This document shows positions 2,694 through 27,501 of a stretch of 32,000 nucleotides of DNA, in pieces (the stretch's first letter is position 1; every line of letters begins with the position of its first letter). The stretch covers positions 1 through 32,000 of the forward strand of contig JAEXAH010000019.1 of assembly GCA_023458315.1 (NCBI GenBank), given 5' to 3'. Origin of the DNA: Pseudomonadota bacterium. Its GTDB lineage: Bacteria; Pseudomonadota; Alphaproteobacteria; Rhodospirillales; Magnetospirillaceae. The notes under the pieces were generated by a model. It ran no database searches and had not been told where the DNA came from. It saw only the letters and a list, made by a program, of their open reading frames with translations. The translations under genes were made by a program, and so were the position numbers.

Positions 2694-2834
2694 ATGCAAG
2701 TTTCCTTTCCATTTTCCATATATGTTCAACTTTTTTATTTTATAATATTGCTTACAAAAAAACTACCCTTGTATGAACGGTCTTATTATACAACCGTCCA
2801 TACAAAGGAAGTAAAAGTGGGGGAATATATATAA

Positions 2835-4265
2835 TTAAAGTTTAAGCAACGCAGTTATTATATAATTTAGTACAAAGAGTCCCGTTACAATGTACATGAC
2901 AGGGTGCACCGACTTTGCTTTTCCTTTGAATATCTTTACAATCACATACATAATAAATCCGGAAGCGATACCACTTGATATACTGTATGCAAAGGGCATT
3001 ATTGCAGCTGTAAAGAATGCCGGCAACGCTTCATCAAAATCATCCCATTTAATTTTTGCAAAGCTTCCCATCATCAGTACACCTACTATTATTAAAGCAG
3101 GTGCAGTGGCAGCTGCCGGAATTACTCCTGCAATAGGTGCAAACAACAGACACAAAGCAAACAGTATAGCTGTAAATATCGATGTAAGACCGGTTCTTCC
3201 TCCTACACCTATACCGGCTGCACTTTCAACATAAGTTGTTGTATTTGATGTACCGAATACCGCACCAATAGATGTAGCAATAGCATCTGCAAAAAGTGCC
3301 TTGTCCATTTTAGACTTGAAGCCTTTTCCCGCGAACAGCTCTGCTTCATCCTTATCATCGAATATACCGCTCTTACGGCCTGTCCCGATGAAAGTTCCTA
3401 TTGTATCAAAGGTATCCGATAAACTGAATGCAAGAATTGTTACCAAAACAAGAGCCAATTTACCCGGATCACTGAACAAACCTGCAAAGTCCATCTTAAA
3501 TGCTGTTTGAGCAACGTCAGCTACCTTGTATGTTGTAGACATGGAAATATCAGTTACATGTAACGGAATACCGATTATTGTAGATGCAACTATACCTACA
3601 AGTATGGCACTCTTTAATTTAAGAATCATTAAAATAGCTGTTATTACAAGACCAATCAATGCTACCTGTGCAACAGGGTTTGTAAAGTTTACAAAAGCCG
3701 GAACTACATTTGCTCCGTCTGCCACAACAGTAGCGGATTTGGGATCATTCCCTAATATTTTCAGAGGTTCCCAAGCCTTACCTTCAGATGTAAATTTCAA
3801 AAATCCAGCACTTTTGAAACCTATATAAGCGATAAATAATCCGATACCACCGCCGATGGCTAACTGAAGAGATTCAGGAATCGCCTTAATTATCAGCTTT
3901 CTTATCTGAGTTACCGTAATAATTATATTTATGACACCGCAGATAAACACCATTGCCATGGCTTGCTGCCAAGTGTACCCCAGTCCGAATACAACCGTAA
4001 AAGTAAAAAATGCGTTCAATCCCATACCAGGGGCCTGTGCATATGGAACATTGGCGAATAACCCCATAATAAGTGTTCCTACAACTGCCGCTAGTATTGT
4101 TGCAACATAAACACCACCTTTAGGAATACCTGTTTGCCCTAAAATAGTAGGGTTTACAAAAATGACATAGGCCATTGTAAAAAAGGTAGTGAATCCAGCC
4201 ATTGCTTCAGTTGCAACACTAGTTCCGCTCTCCTTTAGTTTGAATTGCCTTTCAAAAAAACTCAT
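2835..4265 (-). CDS. NCS2/AzgA-family purine (adenine/guanine/hypoxanthine) permease
   Basis: Polytopic membrane protein. The N-terminus MSFFERQFKLKESGTSVATEAMAGFTTFFTMAYVIFVNP matches the PbuG/PbuO/AzgA-type signature. Start set at 4265 (MSFFER) behind a GGGAGGGGAAG SD. Confidence 0.8.
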   Translation of the reverse strand: MSFFERQFKLKESGTSVATEAMAGFTTFFTMAYVIFVNPTILGQTGIPKGGVYVATILAAVVGTLIMGLFANVPYAQAPGMGLNAFFTFTVVFGLGYTWQQAMAMVFICGVINIIITVTQIRKLIIKAIPESLQLAIGGGIGLFIAYIGFKSAGFLKFTSEGKAWEPLKILGNDPKSATVVADGANVVPAFVNFTNPVAQVALIGLVITAILMILKLKSAILVGIVASTIIGIPLHVTDISMSTTYKVADVAQTAFKMDFAGLFSDPGKLALVLVTILAFSLSDTFDTIGTFIGTGRKSGIFDDKDEAELFAGKGFKSKMDKALFADAIATSIGAVFGTSNTTTYVESAAGIGVGGRTGLTSIFTAILFALCLLFAPIAGVIPAAATAPALIIVGVLMMGSFAKIKWDDFDEALPAFFTAAIMPFAYSISSGIASGFIMYVIVKIFKGKAKSVHPVMYIVTGLFVLNYIITALLKL

Positions 4266-13463: not shown

Positions 13464-15232
13464 ATGAAATCTTTTAAGCATTTTATGGAAACAGCAAAGA
13501 CTATGTTTTTAAATACCTCTATAAGAAGCAAAATGCTTGTTATTTTCATGGTATTTATGCTTTTTTATGTAATAATTAGTGCCGTTATTTATGTCAATGT
13601 AATAAAAACCGAAACTTTAAGTCAGGTTCGTCAGCGCTCACATGAGACAACTGAGCTTATACGTACAAATATAGACACTATGATTGCTAATGCAAATAAT
13701 GTTTCCAAAATGATGACTACCAATTCTCTTATACGGTCATATCTTAAGTCAGATAATCAGTCTCGTAGTTTGTCTAAAAGTGCCAACGAGGTTATGTTCA
13801 ATATTCACATAACCTTTACGAATATTGATTCAATTTACCTTTACGATTTACATGGTTCGGTGCTGCGAACCAATAAATTCCTTACAAGTTCAAGCGTGGA
13901 GGATGTAAAAGATGCACCCTGGTTTGATGAGCTTGTCAATCTCAACGGAGGCTATAAAATAGCTATAAATGCACAGGATACCCTTAGAACATATTCAGGC
14001 AAAAATCTTGTGTCCGTTATGAGAGTTTTGAACGACCTTGACAGCCTTAAGCCCATTGGAGTTATAGTATTGAACATTTCGCAAGACAACATAGCGGATG
14101 TTGTCAATGAAACCAGTGCAAACGGAGGATCTTCCTTTATAATTCTTGATGCAGATAATAATCCCGTTATTAAAAATGATGCTGCCTACGAGACGTATAA
14201 CACGTATCTTGCAAGAATATCCGGTGACGAGGATATAATAACCATCAACAACAAAAGATTACTTGTATTCAAATCTGATATGCCGGATACAGGCTGGAAA
14301 ATAATAAGCTGCACAAGTCTTTCCTCTAAGTCACCTGCAATTCGTACCTTGAATGTACTGTATGTGCTGTTTATAGGAATTACTATCTTTTTATTTATAG
14401 TCGCTTCACTTTTCACTGCAAGCCTGATAACCTCACCTATCAAGAAGCTTATAAATTCAATGCAAGGTGTCGCAAATGGGGTTTTCAAGCGAGTAAGCTA
14501 TAACACGGGGAACGATGAAATAGGTGAACTTAAAAACAATTACAACCTTATGATTATGGAAATAAACAACCTAATAATAAAGCTTTTAGACGAAGAAAAG
14601 AAAAAGCGCAAATTCGAGCTGGATGTTTTAAATGAACAAATAAAACCCCACTTTTTATACAATACTCTTGATAATATTGCCTACTTGGCATTATCCGGCA
14701 ACAATAAAACTGTATATGAAGCAGTAAATGCACTGGGTAGCTTTTGCAGAATCAGCTCAGCAAAGGTTCGGAAGTTATAAGCTTAGAGAACGAAGTACGT
14801 CAGATACAAAACTATCTGTTGCTCCAAAAGCTACGTTATGGTGAGATGATTAGCGCCAAGTACGATATAGACCCGGATACAAACCAAATTAAAATACTCA
14901 AGAATATTCTTCAGCCCTTAGTAGAAAACAGTATATATCACGGTATCAGGCCCAGCGGTGAACCCGGTTTTATTAAAACCTCAGCACATATTAAGGGTGA
15001 TTGTCTTATATTGTCCGTTGAAGATGACGGTATTGGAATGGATGAGCAGGAAATTAAAAGTATATCAGATGAAAATCTTGCAGGAAATCAAGCCAGTTTT
15101 GGACTTAGAGGCACGATACAGCGACTAAAGATACATTATGGCACTAATGATATATATTTGGTAGAAAGCAGCAAGTATTCAGGTACTAAAATAACACTGA
15201 AAATTCCGTTAGAGGGGGATAAAGATGACTGA
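13464..15232 (+). pseudogene. YesM-type sensor histidine kinase split by a single-base frameshift
   Basis: ORF 13464-14780 carries the TM, sensor, HAMP and H-box (KPHFLYNTLDNI). ORF 14744-15232 carries the N-box (LVENSIYHG) and G-box (DDGIGMD). The two frames join into the family-typical ..FCRIS/LSKGSEVISLENE.. if one base is added at about 14756 (AGC-CTC read as AGCTC). Confidence 0.75.
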
Positions 15233-20927: not shown

Positions 20928-21018
20928 GGAGAGATGGCTGAGCTGGTCTAAGGCGCACGACTGGAAATCGTGTGTGGGGTAAAACTCACCGTGGGTTCGA
21001 ATCCCACTCTCTCCGCCA
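20928..21018 (+). tRNA. tRNA-Ser, anticodon GGA, with encoded CCA
   Basis: 7-bp acceptor stem GGAGAGA/TCTCTCC. Anticodon stem CACGA/TCGTG with loop CTGGAAA. Long variable arm (class II tRNA), T-arm GGGTTCGAATCCC, discriminator G plus CCA. Total 91 nt. Confidence 0.9.
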
Positions 21019-21917: not shown

Positions 21918-22910
21918 TTAAGATACAAATTTTCTATGACTTATTTGAACTTCATCCACATTTAGGTCTGCGTATATCTGCGTAGTAGCAGGTGTAGTGT
22001 GTCCTAACATTTTCTGTACAGCTTGAATACTTGCTCCCGCGTTTACTGCTGTTGTAGCTGTTGTGTGTCTTAGCAGGTGCGGATGTACCGATTTAATTAT
22101 GCCTGCCATTGCTCCTAATTGATTAAATACTTTTTGATATCCCCTATGGCTTAAACGATTCATTGGTAATCGCAACCCAACAAAAAGTGCATTATTATTG
22201 TCTTTACGCAAGTCTAAATATCTCCACAAATGTACTTTTGCCCTGGCATTTAAAAAAACCGTTCTTTCTTTATTCCCTTTTCCTATTACATTAACAGAAC
22301 TCCTATTCCAATCGATATCATTTTTATTTAATTTGTACACTTCATCTAGTCGACAACCCGTTGAGTAAAAAAATTCAATCATTGCTTTTTCTCGTTGATT
22401 TCTGCAAGCCAACCTTAACATTTCAAGTTCTTCCTGAGACAGTGCCTTTCTAATTCGCTTTTCTTTTTTAGCCGGCTTTATCTTTCTCATAGGGCTTTTC
22501 ACAATGTAATCTTCCATTTCTAACCACGAGAAAAAGCTTTTCAATATGCTGATTTCTGTATCTAAAGTCGAATTTTTTATACCTGTAGAAGCATATTGAG
22601 CCAGGTATCTTCTTATGTCCATTACAGTAATATCTTCTATTCTTTTTTGTACTATTTTTGAAAATCTAGCTAAATGATGAGAATAGCTTTTTAATGTTTT
22701 TTGAGAAAGACCTTCAAGTTTTTTAGTTGAAATAAATAAAACAATTTTTTCCGGAATCCCTTCAAATGGTATAATAGCATTTTCAACTGGCTGCAGGTCA
22801 TAGTTATAGAGTTCTTCTTCTAAAATTACTTTAAGCTGAACGGCAACTTCCTGAGTAAGGAGATCAACTGCCTTACTCAGGATACGTATAATTACATCTT
22901 CTTTTACCAT
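21918..22910 (-). CDS. int: Tyrosine site-specific recombinase/integrase, XerC/D-like architecture
   Basis: N-terminal SAM-like domain (LSQKTLKSYSHHLARF...DIRRYL). Catalytic residues sit in TGCRLDEV (Arg I), HLLRHTTAT (His-x-x-Arg), LGHTT and TQIYA (Tyr). AGGAGGAG SD upstream. Confidence 0.9.
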   Translation of the reverse strand: MVKEDVIIRILSKAVDLLTQEVAVQLKVILEEELYNYDLQPVENAIIPFEGIPEKIVLFISTKKLEGLSQKTLKSYSHHLARFSKIVQKRIEDITVMDIRRYLAQYASTGIKNSTLDTEISILKSFFSWLEMEDYIVKSPMRKIKPAKKEKRIRKALSQEELEMLRLACRNQREKAMIEFFYSTGCRLDEVYKLNKNDIDWNRSSVNVIGKGNKERTVFLNARAKVHLWRYLDLRKDNNNALFVGLRLPMNRLSHRGYQKVFNQLGAMAGIIKSVHPHLLRHTTATTAVNAGASIQAVQKMLGHTTPATTQIYADLNVDEVQISHRKFVS

Positions 22911-22933
22911 TTATTTACTCCTCCTATTGCACG

Positions 22934-22964
22934 AAGATAAAAGACAAGATATAATTATCTTGTC
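22934..22964 (-). terminator. Terminator-like hairpin inside the recombinase leader
   Basis: Minus strand: GACAAGATA-ATTA-TATCTTGTC (perfect 9-bp stem) followed by TTTTATCTT, ending 24 nt before the int ATG. Confidence 0.5.
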
Positions 22965-23058
22965 CCACTCGTGGGACGCTGTAGGGGGTTGGTGTCTTAT
23001 CTTGCCGGATGTGCACCCATCCCCTTTTTATATGTCCTATATTTTATTTTCAAAATCA

Positions 23059-23087
23059 ATTATATAAGGATAAGCCAAAAAATTCAA
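23059..23087 (-). promoter_or_regulatory. Near-consensus sigma-A promoter upstream of the recombinase leader
   Basis: The minus strand reads TTGAAT (23087-23082), a 17-nt spacer, then TATAAT (23064-23059). Confidence 0.55.
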
Positions 23088-23130
23088 CAATATTTTCATA
23101 TTTTGGATAATAAAACAAGGAACCCCGATG

Positions 23131-23159
23131 AACAAAAATAAAAGCCCCTATTTAGGAGC
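23131..23159 (-). terminator. Terminator ending the FtsK / replication-relaxation operon
   Basis: Minus strand: AGCTCCTA..TAGGGGCT stem followed by TTTTATTTTTG, 40 nt past the stop of the 90-aa ORF. Confidence 0.5.
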
Positions 23160-23199
23160 TATAATGAAATGAATAAAATTAAATTAAAGGGCAATAATA

Positions 23200-23472
23200 T
23201 TATCTGAAACTAGATAAATATAAAACTTTGCATGAAGGTTGCGGAATTGATGGTTCTGCAACCTTCTTTTCATTATAAAAGCCACTATTGCAGCTATACC
23301 AAACCCAACTACCAAACAAGTAACCTAGATAATACCTACCCTTTCCAAATATGTTAATAATAAATGTCTTTTTCTTTTGCTTTTCTTGTCTACGTTTGAG
23401 CCTACGTTTTTGAATCTGTTCACGGTTTTTGATCTCGTTTCCTAATTGTTTTAATAATAAGTTCATTAACAT
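23200..23472 (-). CDS. Hypothetical protein, 90 aa: Lys/Arg-rich N-terminal half, aromatic-hydrophobic segment
   Basis: Strong GGGGAGGAAA SD precedes the ATG at 23472. It is the last gene of the operon and has no recognisable motif. Confidence 0.45.
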   Translation of the reverse strand: MLMNLLLKQLGNEIKNREQIQKRRLKRRQEKQKKKTFIINIFGKGRYYLGYLFGSWVWYSCNSGFYNEKKVAEPSIPQPSCKVLYLSSFR

Positions 23473-23505
23473 AAAAGTTTCCTCCCCTTCGTTATATATT
23501 TGCTT

Positions 23506-23691
23506 TTAAAAAAGCCGAGAGAAAAAATTTAAAATATTACTTATACTTTTGTTTACTGCATCGTCTTTAAATATTGCAGATATATCCATGTTCTTTATAT
23601 AAAACATCAAGGAAACTCCACCAATAGTAAGTAACCATGCAATTTTATTATTCATCTGTTTAGTAGCAGTTGATTCTATTTTATTAGCCAT
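23506..23691 (-). CDS. Small single-pass membrane protein, 61 aa
   Basis: One hydrophobic helix (IAWLLTIGGVSLMFYI). GGGGGA SD upstream; the start is 2 nt after the upstream stop. Confidence 0.45.
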   Translation of the reverse strand: MANKIESTATKQMNNKIAWLLTIGGVSLMFYIKNMDISAIFKDDAVNKSISNILNFFSRLF

Positions 23692-23693
23692 AC

Positions 23694-24266
23694 CTATATC
23701 CCCCTAAACAAGTTTCCAATACCGGATGTAGATTCAATGTTAACCGTCCTGAATTTAATGCCCGTTTTTGTAGGAACTACAACGTTCCTGTCGGTAACTA
23801 TAACTACACGCGGCATTAATTTAAACATGGCTTTTAGATCTGTATTTTTTACAAGGTCCTGGTATTTGTCAAAGTTGAATTTGTTATTTAAGTGGATTTC
23901 TAAAAAACACGGGAAAATAATACCATGATCATTTATATAAGCTAGTGCATCCGGCCGGATACTTTCGATGGGACATTCATTTTCCCATGATTCTACCGTG
24001 TAATATCGGGTTAATAGTACATATATCTGACTACGTATTAAGTCATGGTGTATCTGCACAGGCTTTTTATTGATGTAATAAGCAAAACTACTATCTATAG
24101 TGCTTCTGGTACGCTTAATAAAGCCTTGATTAAATAGATACAATAACCTATTATTGCAATACCTATATGATGCTTTATTGAAAAATATTTGATATATTTG
24201 TTTTGCAGTAGCAATATGGAAGTCTTCAAGAAAATTTAATATAGACTGGTCACGCTTAGTAATCAT
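23694..24266 (-). CDS. Replication-relaxation family protein (Pfam Replic_Relax-like winged helix)
   Basis: N-terminus ITKRDQSILNFLEDFHIATAKQIYQIFF...NNRLLYLFNQGFIKR follows the family pattern (R-D..IL.FL......T..QI..LFF....RRL..L...GLI.R). Its ATG overlaps the FtsK-like stop by 4 nt. Confidence 0.6.
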   Translation of the reverse strand: MITKRDQSILNFLEDFHIATAKQIYQIFFNKASYRYCNNRLLYLFNQGFIKRTRSTIDSSFAYYINKKPVQIHHDLIRSQIYVLLTRYYTVESWENECPIESIRPDALAYINDHGIIFPCFLEIHLNNKFNFDKYQDLVKNTDLKAMFKLMPRVVIVTDRNVVVPTKTGIKFRTVNIESTSGIGNLFRGI

Positions 24267-25546
24267 AGCAGACTCCTTTGATAAGGATTTTTATTATTAA
24301 GCCTAAATTGCTTTATTTTCTCCTGTCGTTCATTTCGCATATCCTCCTTGGTCTTATATGCCTTATGCTCTTTTAGCACCTTCTTGACGTCCTCAGGCTC
24401 GATATAAAGGCACTGTACTTCTTTAAACTCGCCAAGGTATTTCATGAGGCACCTACCTTGGTTTCTAATTTTTTCAGCACCATCAACGTCCAAAATTACC
24501 TCACTGTCTGTAGAAGTAACGGTTTTAAAAGCAATTCTGGTTGGCATGCTGCCTTTAATGGATCCGGATATAATTTTTACGTCAGGACGTTGCATGCTGG
24601 CAACATATAAAATACCAACCTTTCTATCCATTGCCACCCTTGTTCTGAATTTTTCCAATAAAGGCTTATATTCATCTTCTGCCAACCTTGCAAATTCATC
24701 TACTACAATAATTTTGTAGGGTAATGCTCGTTCAGGGTAATATTTATTCCAGACACTTAATTTTTGTATGTAGTGCTTATTTCTAACGCTTGCAAATAGT
24801 TTTAATCGCCTTTCTGATTCTTCTGCCATTTCATCAATCAGTTTTTCAAAGTCTAAAGGTTTTTCACCGTAAGACTTCACCTTTTTGCAGTCCTGGAATA
24901 TACCTAGTTCTACTGCCTGAAAATCAATTAAATGTATATCAATGTTGTGTTGGCTTATTAATAGTGATAAAAGTATTGTCCTCAATAAGCTTGATTTCCC
25001 ACTGTTTGGCTCTCCTGCTACTATTATTTGTGTCGCCTTGTCTATGTCAAAATAAAATTTTCCGTCATTTGTATAACCTATAAATACTTCAGTCGGTTCT
25101 CCACAGTCTTCATATTCATAGTCATATTTAGTTGATAGCTTCAAATGAATACACTTCATGATAAGATTCTTATTAAAACCAAATTCAATCTTGCAATTTA
25201 AGGCTTGTTCTAAGGCGGTTTGTTTGCGCTCAAAATCCTCTTGTGATAGTCCGTTTGGAAGTGATAAAACCAGAGTGGTATAATCATCAGATTTTTGTTC
25301 CTTGATTATTATAGGAGCTTTGTTCTCTTTATTTACTAAACCGCAATTCCGGAATAGATTATCATACACATTAGGTTTAAGTACTTTGTCTAATATTATT
25401 CCACCGCCTACCGTGCAAGCAGAAAAAAGTGCAAATTTACCGTCTGGTATATGCAAATGTCCAAGAGTTAAAGCCTGATTACATATGTACACGCCAAAAG
25501 TAAGTATTGCACTCTGATAAGTGAAATGATATTTATTTAATTCCAT
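24263..25546 (-). CDS. FtsK/SpoIIIE-family DNA translocase with N-terminal membrane anchor
   Basis: Two N-terminal hydrophobic segments, Walker A GEPNSGKSS, Walker B KIIVVDEFARL, downstream QRP motif (ASMQRPD). Start set at 25546 (MELNKY) behind AGGTGGTGGA. Confidence 0.8.
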   Translation of the reverse strand: MELNKYHFTYQSAILTFGVYICNQALTLGHLHIPDGKFALFSACTVGGGIILDKVLKPNVYDNLFRNCGLVNKENKAPIIIKEQKSDDYTTLVLSLPNGLSQEDFERKQTALEQALNCKIEFGFNKNLIMKCIHLKLSTKYDYEYEDCGEPTEVFIGYTNDGKFYFDIDKATQIIVAGEPNSGKSSLLRTILLSLLISQHNIDIHLIDFQAVELGIFQDCKKVKSYGEKPLDFEKLIDEMAEESERRLKLFASVRNKHYIQKLSVWNKYYPERALPYKIIVVDEFARLAEDEYKPLLEKFRTRVAMDRKVGILYVASMQRPDVKIISGSIKGSMPTRIAFKTVTSTDSEVILDVDGAEKIRNQGRCLMKYLGEFKEVQCLYIEPEDVKKVLKEHKAYKTKEDMRNERQEKIKQFRLNNKNPYQRSLL

Positions 25547-25653
25547 ATAATATTCCACCACCTATTCCAAATATAGTTCCTTAGTGTATCCTATAATAGA
25601 TTGTCTTAGGTGGCTTAAACACTCATAAAATCGGCATTTTTAAAAAAGCAAGT

Positions 25654-25707
25654 GGAGCGAGCGACCGAAGGGAGAGAGGGAACGAGGGACCGCCCGACCC
25701 GGGGCCG
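25654..25707. repeat. T-free GC-rich island with three 8-nt-phased AGGGA units
   Basis: 54 nt with no T on the plus strand and 41/54 G+C, inside AT-rich DNA. AGGGA occurs at 25669-73, 25677-81 and 25685-89 (8-mers CGAAGGGA, GAGAGGGA, ACGAGGGA). It is bracketed by an 8-bp inverted repeat: AAATCGGC at 25628-35 and GCCGATTT at 25704-11. Confidence 0.85.
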
Positions 25708-25709
25708 AT

Positions 25710-25892
25710 TTAGAAGGAAAATAGACTGGGATTATTATCATTTGCACTTTTACCAATGCTTTCCTGTTTTTGATTTCTTTTCATATCGTCAATAATTAAC
25801 TGTTTTATATATACAGATTCGCTTAGTTGTGATTTAACATGTTCGTATAACGCCTGTTCATCTCTTTTAAAACTAACACCTATCTTTGCCAT
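25710..25892 (-). CDS. ParR-like small DNA-binding protein (ribbon-helix-helix-like N-terminus)
   Basis: 60 aa. N-terminus MAKIGVSFKRDEQALYEHV has the beta-strand then helix pattern of RHH/ParR adaptors. It overlaps the ParM-like stop by 13 nt, the classic parM-parR order. Confidence 0.45.
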   Translation of the reverse strand: MAKIGVSFKRDEQALYEHVKSQLSESVYIKQLIIDDMKRNQKQESIGKSANDNNPSLFSF

Positions 25893-26695
25893 ATCTGTTC
25901 ACCAACCTCTCTAAAAGCTTTTGCGTTCGCAAAAATGCAATCATTATGTAGTATTGCCCCTGGGATTCGTTTAAGCAGCGGCTCAGATAGTAGTTGAGAA
26001 CCTCCGCCGACCAATACAACACTTTTTGACCGCAAAGAGTATTCAATATTTAAGGTGTTTACAAGTTGCTCTACAAAGCTTTTAAACGTTTCTGCAGCAA
26101 ACCGTATATCTGTACTTACTCCGTCTATGATCAGCCCGTTTTTAATAATCTCCTGAGCATCTTCGACTTTTAAATCAAGGCAAAATCTGCTGTTTAATGC
26201 CTTTATAAATTCACTGTAGAGATTAAATGTGCCGGTCGGCAGGCTGATAGGGTTTTCAATTTTCTTTTGACAGTTAATATTCCGTATCAATGCACAGTCA
26301 GTTGTTCTGCCGCCTATGTCAATAACTATCCCGGAGTCTATTGTCCCTATTCCCTCGGGGTATACCTCTACACCAATGACGTTCTTGATTTTTAAGTTGA
26401 GTAACTTTTCACGAAAAGCAGTGCAATCCTGTTGGTATTGTAAAATCGGAAGACCTACTACAACTCTTAGCGGTTCATAAAACAGAGATGTTAAATAAGC
26501 AAATATAATTTCTGTGTTCTTTTTATTGACCTTACGATATTCAGTTTCGTAATTGCCATCACCTATGTAATAAGTTTTGTCCTGGAATATAAACCCTTTT
26601 TGGTTTAAAAGTTGCCTTTTTGACACCTTTGATTCAAATGTGAGCCCTGTTGATAATTTTGTTGTACAATTGCCTATATCTACACCAAGAACCAT
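25880..26695 (-). CDS. parM: ParM/StbA-like actin-fold plasmid segregation ATPase
   Basis: Actin-fold motifs are present: phosphate-1 GVDIGNCTTK, phosphate-2 VIDIGGRTTD, adenosine VLVGGGSQL. At 271 aa it is short for ParM. Confidence 0.7.
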   Translation of the reverse strand: MVLGVDIGNCTTKLSTGLTFESKVSKRQLLNQKGFIFQDKTYYIGDGNYETEYRKVNKKNTEIIFAYLTSLFYEPLRVVVGLPILQYQQDCTAFREKLLNLKIKNVIGVEVYPEGIGTIDSGIVIDIGGRTTDCALIRNINCQKKIENPISLPTGTFNLYSEFIKALNSRFCLDLKVEDAQEIIKNGLIIDGVSTDIRFAAETFKSFVEQLVNTLNIEYSLRSKSVVLVGGGSQLLSEPLLKRIPGAILHNDCIFANAKAFREVGEQIWQR

Positions 26696-27004: not shown

Positions 27005-27073
27005 AAAATCACCTTTGATATAATATTAAACATTTCCCCTTAATGTCCTTTAAGGAAAATAAAAAAATCTTTC

Positions 27074-27113
27074 AAAGGTTTCTCCCTGAGGGCTACAGTC
27101 TACTCCTAATCCG
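27074..27113. repeat. Direct repeat copy A (degenerate copy of the holin-gene 3' end and terminator)
   Basis: CAAAGGTTTCTCCCTGAGGGCTACAGTCTACTCCTAATCC aligns with 27654-27694. The core TTTCTCC[C/T]TGAGGG[C/T]TACAGTCTA matches at 22 of 24 positions. Confidence 0.7.
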
Positions 27114-27204
27114 AAAATACAAATATAATTACCTTCCATTGATAATTGCAAAATTAAATAATATAATGTTATCAAACATATGTTCTATAACAGGAGGATT
27201 ATAT

Positions 27205-27501
27205 ATGCCATTTGGGTTTGAACCAAGGGAAATAGACAATCGTAAAGAAACTGCAATTTATGAACAATTACTTGACAACAAGACATTTCTTGAGGTTACT
27301 GCTATGATGTGTACTAACAAGGCTGTTATACCCCTATCTTTTAAATGGGATTATAGAGAAATTAAAATTGAAAGAGTTATTAATATCCAGGATGGCAAAT
27401 CCCTAAAGGATGGATTCCTGGGGAAAAGATATTTATGTCAGGCTAAAGGTAAAAGATTTTATTTGTATTTTACCGGTAAACAGTGGTATATGAATCTTTG
27501 A
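27205..27501 (+). CDS. Hypothetical protein, 98 aa (accessory, moron-like gene)
   Basis: The internal ATG at 27205 (MPFGFEPREID...) sits 7 nt behind an AGGAGG SD. The track's upstream 54 codons have no SD and cross a terminator-like repeat. It is the only plus-strand gene in this stretch and has no recognisable motif. Confidence 0.55.
   Translation: MPFGFEPREIDNRKETAIYEQLLDNKTFLEVTAMMCTNKAVIPLSFKWDYREIKIERVINIQDGKSLKDGFLGKRYLCQAKGKRFYLYFTGKQWYMNL

Follow-up and report, generated by a model that had tools for sequence, protein, structure and literature searches.

The window analysed in this study, the whole 32,000-nt stretch at positions 1 to 32,000 of contig JAEXAH010000019.1, covered one end of a prophage and had a mean G+C content of approximately 36%. 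Its genes lie on the minus strand unless marked otherwise. Between a ParM-like actin gene, with a small open reading frame (ORF) behind it, and the start of an FtsK-like ATPase gene, a T-free, G+C-rich tract was located, which proved to be the distal arm of a non-coding composite element of approximately 170 bp (25540–25710, read on the plus strand). In this reading direction the element consisted of direct repeats phased at 12 bp, a TTGTCT box, CATAAA, an AT palindrome joined to GCAAGTG, and the purine-rich tract. The parts of the element and the genes that adjoin it were as follows.

23694–24266, minus strand: Replic_Relax (MOB_C-type) protein, with a winged helix and a PD-(D/E)XK-like nuclease domain.
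24263–25546, minus strand: FtsK/SpoIIIE-family ATPase of TcpA type, with two predicted N-terminal transmembrane helices (residues 1–64) and an ATG at 25546 backed by a ribosome-binding site (RBS).
25540–25592, minus strand: direct-repeat array of four to five GGAAY cores, one every 12 bp, overlapping the RBS and ATG (25546) of the FtsK-like gene.
25601–25631, plus strand: weak promoter-like pair, TTGTCT (25601–25606), a 17-nt spacer, and CATAAA (25624–25629) or TAAAAT (25626–25631).
25634–25654, plus strand: AT palindrome with the block GCATTTTTAAAAAAGCAAGTG, where conservation within the element is highest.
25654–25708, plus strand: the tract, T-free, 75% G+C and 73% purine, the distal polar arm of the element.
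25656–25664, plus strand: two overlapping AGCGA motifs (AGCGAGCGA), equivalent to the family-wide AGCGR and homologous to GAGCGAAGCGAACGA of the relatives.
25668–25689, plus strand: three RAGGGA units in 8-nt phase, unique in the window and specific to the lineage of this window.
25628–25635 and 25704–25711: 8-bp inverted repeat AAATCGGC/GCCGATTT, bracketing the tract.
25710–25892, minus strand: 60-aa ORF, ParR-like by position only, with no PDB match.
25880–26695, minus strand: ParM-like actin (ALP_N and MreB-like_C domains; PHROG 'partition protein').

The tract was the longest T-free run of the window, the runner-up being 26 nt. The original prediction had placed it at 25654–25707 and given its length as 54 nt; the tract was real, but it extended to 25708 and measured 55 nt. 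The composition of 25654–25707 (A13 C15 G26 T0) agreed with the predicted 41 G+C of 54, which was the highest value of any 54-nt segment in the window, and the next peak reached 34. This compositional anomaly lies far outside chance. The three predicted AGGGA repeats could be located at 25669, 25677 and 25685 in exact 8-nt phase, and the pattern RAGGGA-N2-RAGGGA-N2-RAGGGA occurred once in the window, compared to 0.00 expected in shuffles. The gene ends (stop of the 60-aa ORF at 25710, FtsK-like start at 25546) and the run of six T residues that follows the tract on the minus strand were also as described.

On the plus strand, the array read ATTCC at 25540, 25552 and 25564, GTTCC at 25576 and a degenerate TATCC at 25587. 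The exact 12-bp spacing of GGAAY (25540–25580, minus strand) gave two overlapping matches in comparison to the 0.02 expected by chance. The TTGTCT/CATAAA pair was directed at the tract and the 3' end of the parR-like ORF and stood at a fixed distance from the block that follows. Judged by sequence, the AT palindrome together with the GCATTTTTAAAAAAGCAAGTG block is a candidate region for melting or nicking.

The FtsK-like protein has approximately 76 close relatives with 46–67% identity, and the comparison was made over 22 distinct phage and prophage loci, the window included (relatives are cited below by their L numbers). The element lay directly upstream of the same FtsK-like/Replic_Relax gene pair in all 22 loci with fixed, near-ungapped internal spacing, and the predicted existence of a cis-acting site tied to the FtsK-like gene was thus upheld as a conserved non-coding element coupled to that gene. 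By sequence comparison, the element is assigned to a family of clostridial prophages. Among the first ten loci compared, the highest G+C peak coincided with the FtsK-like start or lay just ahead of it in eight (seven of the eight distinct ones); it covered the first bases of the FtsK-like gene in L003 and straddled the start in L005. Arrays phased at 12 bp with at least three copies were present in 18 of the 22 loci, and 12 loci had four to five copies. TTGTC (as TgaTTGTCt) was conserved at fixed spacing from the block, followed approximately 18 nt on by a tATTTt-like box. In the near-ungapped alignment of 21 loci, TTTT..AAAAAGCAAGT was at least 80% conserved, and the family form of the block could be written as TTTT..AAAAAGCAAGTga, often an AT palindrome with G/C flanks. 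A scan of viral contigs with the 17-base block pattern returned one family member and 38 matches lacking the family context, which are attributed to chance. The more distant relatives on plasmids of C. perfringens and Thermoanaerobacterium carried the gene pair and no G+C-rich tract.

The genes upstream of the element differed among the loci. The element occurred without parMR in at least six loci (L003, L007, L019, L020, L065 and L066), following lysis genes in L066 and helix-turn-helix (HTH) or recombinase genes in the other five. In L003, L019 and L020, which are forward loci without parMR, a conserved Xre-type HTH gene (MGISYAKLRELL...) lay divergently, approximately 200–350 nt upstream of the element, and in these loci the repeats and boxes also serve as a divergent control region. 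L063 carried a ParA-type ATPase with a 101-aa adaptor (1000–2054) in place of ParM/ParR, and a non-coding gap of approximately 950 bp separated this ParA system from the element. In L064, an IS605 OrfB/TnpB gene (2716–3834) was seen just downstream of Replic_Relax. In L006, L010 and L014, an inverted repeat of 9 bp, its arms 8 bp apart (GTCATATAG-N8-CTATATGAC), overlapped the TTGTCT box, approximately 45–70 nt upstream of the GCAAGT block; only a vestige of it, CCTAT..TTAGG at 25590–25611, could be seen in the window. Possible roles of this repeat are those of an operator or of a recombinase-type core site. A dif/Xer-like site, suggested by the company of an FtsK-like gene and an Xer-like integrase, was considered and rejected, as no convincing dif arms could be recognised by eye and several loci had no integrase in the stretches examined.

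Over the family, the tract had on average 61% G+C (29% just upstream), 72% purine, a G–C skew of +0.38 and 4.3 T per 50 nt, in genomes of 24–42% G+C. Conservation of the tract in homologues was borne out for its position and polarity relative to the block and for its composition, but not for its sequence or its length, which ranged from approximately 15 nt (L020 and L021) to approximately 110 nt. Purine content (60–84%) was better kept than G+C content, the tract of L014 having 34% G+C yet 82% purine. The G–C skew was positive in 21 of the 22 loci, and purine richness, skew and T-poverty were retained in 21–22 of them. Many tracts ended distally in a cluster of G and C only (CCGCCCGACCCGGGGCC, GGCGGCGCCGG, CGGCGGCGACCGCCGCCG), for example in the window (25690–25707), L009, L017 and L004; this cluster formed a short perfect hairpin in L017 and none in the window.

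A polar, repeated, G-rich motif was indeed present, as had been predicted, but the motif shared by the family was AGCGR and not the AGGGA 8-mers. AGCGR was found in 35 copies on the top strand and none on the bottom strand, in 13 of 18 tracts, whereas shuffles gave a mean of 8.2 and a maximum of 18 (500 shuffles), and GAGCGA occurred in 9 of 17 loci against 1.15 expected. This enrichment comes in part from shared descent of the first 15–20 nt, GAGCGAAGCGAACGA, and the copies elsewhere look like local expansions. RAGGGA was present in 6 of 18 loci. The 8-mers of the window and their 8-nt phase were not family-wide: GAGAGGGA occurred twice in the L066 tract and CGAAGGGA once in that of L063, while L066 had GAGAGGGAGC twice at 10-nt phase and L064 had GGAGC three times at 5-nt phase. 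Outside the tract, its motifs showed no excess or informative skew in the window. On the two strands, AGGGA numbered 16 and 35 copies, near the expectation from composition, and the 8-mers were singletons outside the tract.

The fold of 25615–25725 was no better than that of shuffles (minimum free energy (MFE) z-score −0.32), and neither strand of the tract folded significantly. As single-stranded DNA, either strand of the window's tract folded worse than every one of 200 shuffles; selection against secondary structure was considered and rejected, the mean z over 18 loci being only +0.1 to +0.2 and not significant. At the gathering threshold of Rfam 15 a tRNA-Ser was the sole match in the window, and no Rfam match at E ≤ 1 was obtained over 25450–25850. 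A G-quadruplex, assessed by eye, was discarded; four G-runs were present in the window (one loop being 12 nt) and in L063, and tracts of the L009 type lacked GGG. A small ORF or leader peptide running through the tract (GTG at 25652; ATG in L003, L007 and L064) was also rejected, since it had no Shine–Dalgarno sequence, inconsistent lengths and frames, and unconserved peptides. A possible second copy in the window, a near-match at 1812–1823, sits in unrelated sequence and is expected by chance. A 25-mer from the tract had no match in viral contigs, and the 2.9-kb region gave no megablast match among phages and plasmids.

In 18 loci the element was forward, reading with the FtsK-like gene, and the other four carried the whole of it inverted: the window, Ruminiclostridium papyrosolvens C7 (L004, L008 and L033), L066/L067 and L071. 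In these four, the tract borders directly on the upstream gene, and it is the repeats that extend over the RBS and ATG of the FtsK-like gene. The orientation in the window was identical in two independent assemblies of the source sample. All parts of the element and the polarity of the tract were kept in the inverted clade, although the tract sequences could hardly be aligned. The 8-bp inverted repeat bracketing the tract, which the original prediction had pointed out, is present in the window, but it was one of 17 inverted pairs of 8–18 nt within the same 700 nt and was absent from the other inverted-type relatives L004, L066 and L071; it is probably fortuitous.

The Replic_Relax proteins of the inverted clade were 71–77% identical to that of the window. 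The first 64 residues of the ATPase were 69–72% identical to those of L004 and L066, the two tested, compared to approximately 30% for the forward loci, and L071 shared the MELNKYHF start; beyond residue 64, the ATPase was closest to the forward loci L063, L003 and L065 (68–74%). Judging from these identities, the FtsK-like protein is a recombinant, and the picture suggested is one old inversion followed by recombination within the ATPase gene. The N-terminus shared among inverted loci indicates that the cis element and the N-terminal membrane part of the ATPase travel as one module. Retention of the element despite inversion rules out a pure 5' untranslated region (UTR) of the FtsK-like operon as well as a pure terminator of the upstream operon, and a cis site at the level of DNA, or a self-contained transcription unit, would explain its retention in both orientations. 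An invertible promoter switch (inverton) was rejected, as the RBS and ATG of the FtsK-like gene fall inside the inverted segment, all members of the clade have the same orientation and no flanking inverted repeats are present.

Domain analysis of the ATPase revealed PF01580 as its only Pfam match, with no gamma domain (PF09397) and no winged helix-turn-helix (wHTH), while cellular FtsK matches do have PF09397. Its best PDB matches were to TcpA of pCW3 (6o1z, 6o1x and 6o1w; E 6e-23), ahead of FtsK; TcpA is the conjugative coupling protein of the Clostridium perfringens plasmid pCW3. The Replic_Relax protein matched PF13814 (E 9e-7). This is the MOB_C relaxase family, including pAD1 TraX and CloDF13 MobC, whose members combine a winged helix with a PD-(D/E)XK nuclease (PMC5357655, PMC3424549, PMC12857230). 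Among 31 homologues, H73, H74, D75, E97, R104 and the E123-x-H125 pair were invariant, and P105 and D106 nearly so. The AlphaFold2 (AF2) model had a predicted local distance difference test (pLDDT) score of 93, and its fold matched NucS/EndoMS, FokI, R.BspD6I and MarR-type wHTH proteins with weak E-values. The core of the direct repeats differed by locus and tracked the lineage of Replic_Relax, not the motor domain of the ATPase. Helix 34–46 of Replic_Relax co-varied with the repeat class, SYRY occurring with TTC-type repeats and xQY with GTTT/TTG-type repeats; by analogy with MarR-type winged helices this is the predicted recognition helix, and Replic_Relax would be the candidate reader of the direct repeats.

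The layout invited comparison with several known systems. TraX of pAD1 binds five direct repeats located 70–120 bp from nic (PMC12857230). In pAM373, five to six repeats of GTATGCCTAAAG with a 12-bp period directly follow the coupling-protein gene, and a dyad region of approximately 140 bp with higher G+C content comes next, the whole lying between the coupling-protein and relaxase genes. The window resembles these MOB_C origins of transfer (oriT) of Enterococcus faecalis (TraX/Orf8) in having a 'replication-relaxation' protein of wHTH and PD-(D/E)XK type encoded beside a coupling-type ATPase, in the position of the cis site beside these genes, and in the succession of approximately five short repeats (12-bp period in pAM373 and here) and a segment of higher G+C content; the distance of 70–120 bp in pAD1, from binding site to point of action, is also in keeping with the element. 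It differs from both plasmids in that the element has no inverted repeat of approximately 140 bp, the ATPase is TcpA-like and not VirD4-like, the host is a tailed prophage, and nothing in pAM373 corresponds to the purine-skewed T-free tract.

The compact mobilisation modules of streptococcal integrative and mobilisable elements (IMEs; tcpA, relaxase, xis, int) share the same gene order up to a tyrosine integrase by a tRNA gene (PMC5357655). In these IMEs, however, the partners of TcpA are relaxases akin to rolling-circle initiators, whereas the present module is situated in a phage genome, downstream of lysis. The same gene pair follows the lysis module in temperate phages and phage-plasmids of Bacillus (BtCS33, phiCM3, Wbeta/gamma-like phages and RBClin15), although the protein identity is only approximately 27%. 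In BtCS33 (L072, NC_018085), approximately 12 copies of TACCAnGGTA, mostly in 12-bp phase, could be seen at 1740–1900 upstream of ORF21 and the FtsK-like and 'replication initiation protein' genes. Unlike in the window, these repeats are palindromic and have neither a GCAAGTG block nor a G+C-rich tract; they indicate that iteron arrays ahead of this gene pair extend to distantly related Bacillus phages. Iteron-type plasmid origins, such as those of RK2 and pPS10, consist of iterons, an AT-rich region and a G+C-rich stretch. The element shows the same order of parts, with partition genes adjacent; however, no known theta-type Rep is encoded nearby, and its 12-bp units have 5-nt cores compared to iterons of 17–22 bp. 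By layout, the element is a variant of a MOB_C-type oriT or of an iteron origin. Distinctive are the TcpA-type ATPase partner, the tailed-phage setting, the lack of a large inverted repeat and the purine-skewed G+C-rich arm. No description of this cis element could be found in the literature searched.

From sequence comparison, we tentatively read the approximately 170-bp element as the cis site of the TcpA-like ATPase/Replic_Relax pair, and not of parMR, acting as an oriT, a nick-dependent replication origin, or both. The presence of a MOB_C-type nuclease gene next to a 12-bp-phased array points to such a relaxase-type site (oriT or ori) and not to a TraB-clt arrangement, and a site acting in cis on DNA would tolerate either orientation relative to its neighbours, as was seen. 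By analogy with pAD1 TraX, and in line with the co-variation of helix and repeat, the winged helix of Replic_Relax would bind the four to five phased repeats. The bound complex may then melt or nick the DNA approximately 60–110 bp away, at the AT palindrome/GCAAGTG block. Least certain is the part of the tract, which might be a polar flank confining the opening to the AT block, its AGCGR-rich, strand-asymmetric sequence perhaps being the first DNA met by a motor, a helicase or other end-processing proteins. The site as a whole would serve as the transfer origin and/or, while the phage exists in excised or plasmid form, as its nick-initiated replication origin. No single role proposed for the tract itself is better than unlikely.

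Several observations weigh against such an origin. BLASTP detected no similarity between the Replic_Relax protein of the window and the pAM373 relaxase, and the match to PF13814 spans only the N-terminal 60 residues. The element has no large inverted repeat of the kind found in the oriT of pAD1 and pAM373 and no significant fold, and no type IV secretion system (T4SS) genes were present in the window. The MOB_C relaxases of streptococcal IMEs pair with VirD4, never with TcpA (PMC5357655). The co-variation of helix and repeat is confounded by shared descent, and an operon promoter could be all that the conserved TTGTCT/TATTTT boxes represent. Furthermore, L020 and L021 are nearly tract-less and the tract of L014 is AT-rich, which indicates that the tract is dispensable or replaceable.

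The main rival, itself unlikely, takes the conserved boxes as a promoter and the tract as a transcribed purine-rich leader, which would be the 5' UTR of the FtsK-like gene in the forward loci and an antisense or stand-alone transcript in the inverted clade. A purine-rich, G-skewed transcript of this kind could form a stable R-loop that primes replication. R-loop-primed replication is known from ColE1 and pAMbeta1. The boxes stand at fixed, conserved spacing, the tract of the forward loci is followed without a break by the RBS and ATG of the FtsK-like gene, no other promoter being evident, and purine content is the best-kept property of the tract, next to a G–C skew that is positive in 21 of 22 loci; composition kept without sequence would suit an R-loop or an unstructured leader. 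However, the boxes match at 8 of 12 positions and fell under the threshold in the sigma-70 scan, and the long-lived inverted clade, in which the tract is directed away from the operon, contradicts a pure 5' UTR. Neither an Rfam match at E ≤ 1 nor a conserved fold or family-wide structure bias was seen, and no terminator closes a stand-alone RNA.

The original prediction had favoured an array of polar G-rich 8-mers that loads or orients the FtsK-family motor on double-stranded DNA, in the manner of the Streptomyces cis-acting locus of transfer (clt), FtsK-orienting polar sequences (KOPS) or SpoIIIE recognition sequences (SRS), and this is now improbable. TraB is an FtsK-like motor whose C-terminal wHTH reads 8-bp TraB recognition sequences (TRS; GACCCGGA type), and KOPS and SRS are read by the gamma domain. 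The resemblance lies in short polar G-rich repeats next to, or acted on by, a motor of the FtsK family; the tract always adjoins the FtsK-like gene and has constant polarity within the element, and the one-stranded motif is repeated at irregular spacing (AGCGR, and RAGGGA in the six loci mentioned). Unlike in those systems, no TRS, KOPS or SRS motif was found here, the tract holding one GACCCGGG and the single GACCCGGA of the window lying at 14870, and the motifs are neither conserved in the family nor distributed over the genome. The search for the 8-mers elsewhere in the window and in the relatives showed them to be essentially private, with neither their phase shared by relatives nor a KOPS-like spread or informative strand skew. 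The TcpA-like ATPase has neither of the reader domains, gamma or wHTH, and a relaxase-type nuclease gene is adjacent, unlike in TraB/clt systems. Moreover, the motor domain recombined independently of the element, the motor of the window being closest to those of forward loci with different repeats and tracts.

Slightly less probable still is that the tract is neutral low-complexity DNA, grown by slippage of T-less units (GAGCG, GCGAA, GGGAG) beside the block, with T-freeness as a by-product. The length range of approximately 15 to 110 nt, the near absence of the tract in L020 and L021, and the visible tandem units (GGAGC three times in L064, GAGAGGGAGC twice in L066) are what slippage would produce. 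Genomes of 24–42% G+C should nevertheless erode such a tract to local composition, whereas its features were kept in 21–22 of the 22 loci, including lineages that cannot be aligned and the inverted clade.

There is slightly less still to be said for a Chi-like cluster that would shield a rolling-circle tail, or a DNA end created in or close to the site, from degradation by AddAB. The Chi of B. subtilis AddAB is AGCGG, read on the 3'-terminating strand (PMC4614115), and it may not be the Chi of these hosts. AGCGR was enriched more than four-fold and confined to one strand, AGCGG occurred nine times in five loci, and irregular spacing with variable copy number would suit Chi. The window, however, has AGCGA twice and no AGCGG, 5 of 18 tracts lack AGCGR, and the host DNA of the window (20.9 kb) contained 19 and 17 copies of AGCGR per strand compared to approximately 16 and 24 expected from base composition.

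The two alternatives offered by the original prediction, a centromere for ParR (parC) downstream of parMR and a terminator, are both very improbable. The element does stand directly after the small ORF behind the ParM-like gene in the window and in approximately half of the loci, no similar repeats upstream of parM or other iterons near it could be found, and iteron arrays are the targets of ParR-type adaptors (PMC6669507); but the tract has no centromere-type iterons, the class of the repeats goes with the lineage of Replic_Relax, a ParA-type system takes the place of parMR in L063, and the array and whole element persist in at least six loci without parMR, on which the centromere reading fails. 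As for a terminator of parMR, intrinsic (a G+C-rich stem followed by U6) or Rho-dependent (the minus-strand RNA being C-rich and G-poor), the C/U-rich RNA followed by U6 in the window orientation and the pairing of GGGUCGGGCGG with UCGCUCGCUCC in the MFE structure speak for it, but the scan found no terminator-like site in 25500–25800 or nearby, the fold equals that of shuffles with a 20-nt loop and a stem ending 6 nt ahead of the U-run, the pyrimidine-only core is unable to pair with itself, the tract is oppositely oriented in 18 of the 22 loci, and the L066 tract is preceded by a genuine terminator-like hairpin behind the upstream holin gene.

The remaining features of the window place the element within the prophage as follows.

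Below approximately 20.9 kb: host genes.
20928–21018, plus strand: tRNA-Ser (anticodon GGA), approximately 0.9 kb from the integrase.
Between the tRNA-Ser and the integrase, plus strand: HTH gene.
21918–22910, minus strand: tyrosine integrase.
Between the integrase and Replic_Relax, minus strand: two small ORFs of 61 and 90 aa, with no family matches.
Beyond the ParM-like actin, minus strand: HTH gene.
27043–27501, plus strand: 152-aa ORF flanked by the HTH gene and the candidate lysis genes, with no Pfam or PHROG match.
Beyond 27501, on the high-coordinate side, minus strand: candidate lysis genes, then tail genes.

The prophage is likely attached at the end that carries the tRNA-Ser and the integrase. 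The 113-aa and 239-aa ORFs are called lysis genes because of their position and of a VanY/holin match in the relatives, not because of family matches in the window. Over 21918–25546 the order of TcpA-like ATPase, relaxase-like protein, two small ORFs and tyrosine integrase was seen at the end of a tailed phage, and a ParM-type partition system is unusual in an integrated prophage.

Many temperate phages and phage-plasmids of Firmicutes, those of Bacillus and Clostridium among them, have an annotated pair of FtsK/SpoIIIE and 'replication-relaxation' proteins, for which the literature has guessed at roles in sporulation or segregation. The gene pair now has a defined cis element of approximately 170 bp with separable parts, namely the array, the AT/GCAAGTG block and the polar G+C-rich arm. 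The natural forward, inverted, tract-less and AT-rich-tract variants form a ready-made mutant series, and R. papyrosolvens C7 is a cultured strain with an inverted-type copy. An oriT-like or nick-dependent origin in these phages, and a conjugation-type movement or persistence of prophages, thus become directly testable. It is a long shot that the clostridial tailed prophages and phage-plasmids of this family carry a working conjugation-type module, with a TcpA-like motor, a MOB_C-like nuclease and an origin of their own, in which the T-free arm, purine-skewed and rich in AGCGR, would signal polarity or loading to the motor or else mark a DNA end for protection. If true, the arm would be a directional element like KOPS, clt or Chi in a relaxase-dependent system, and the phage DNA could undergo conjugative mobilisation or nick-initiated replication without depending on the production of virions.

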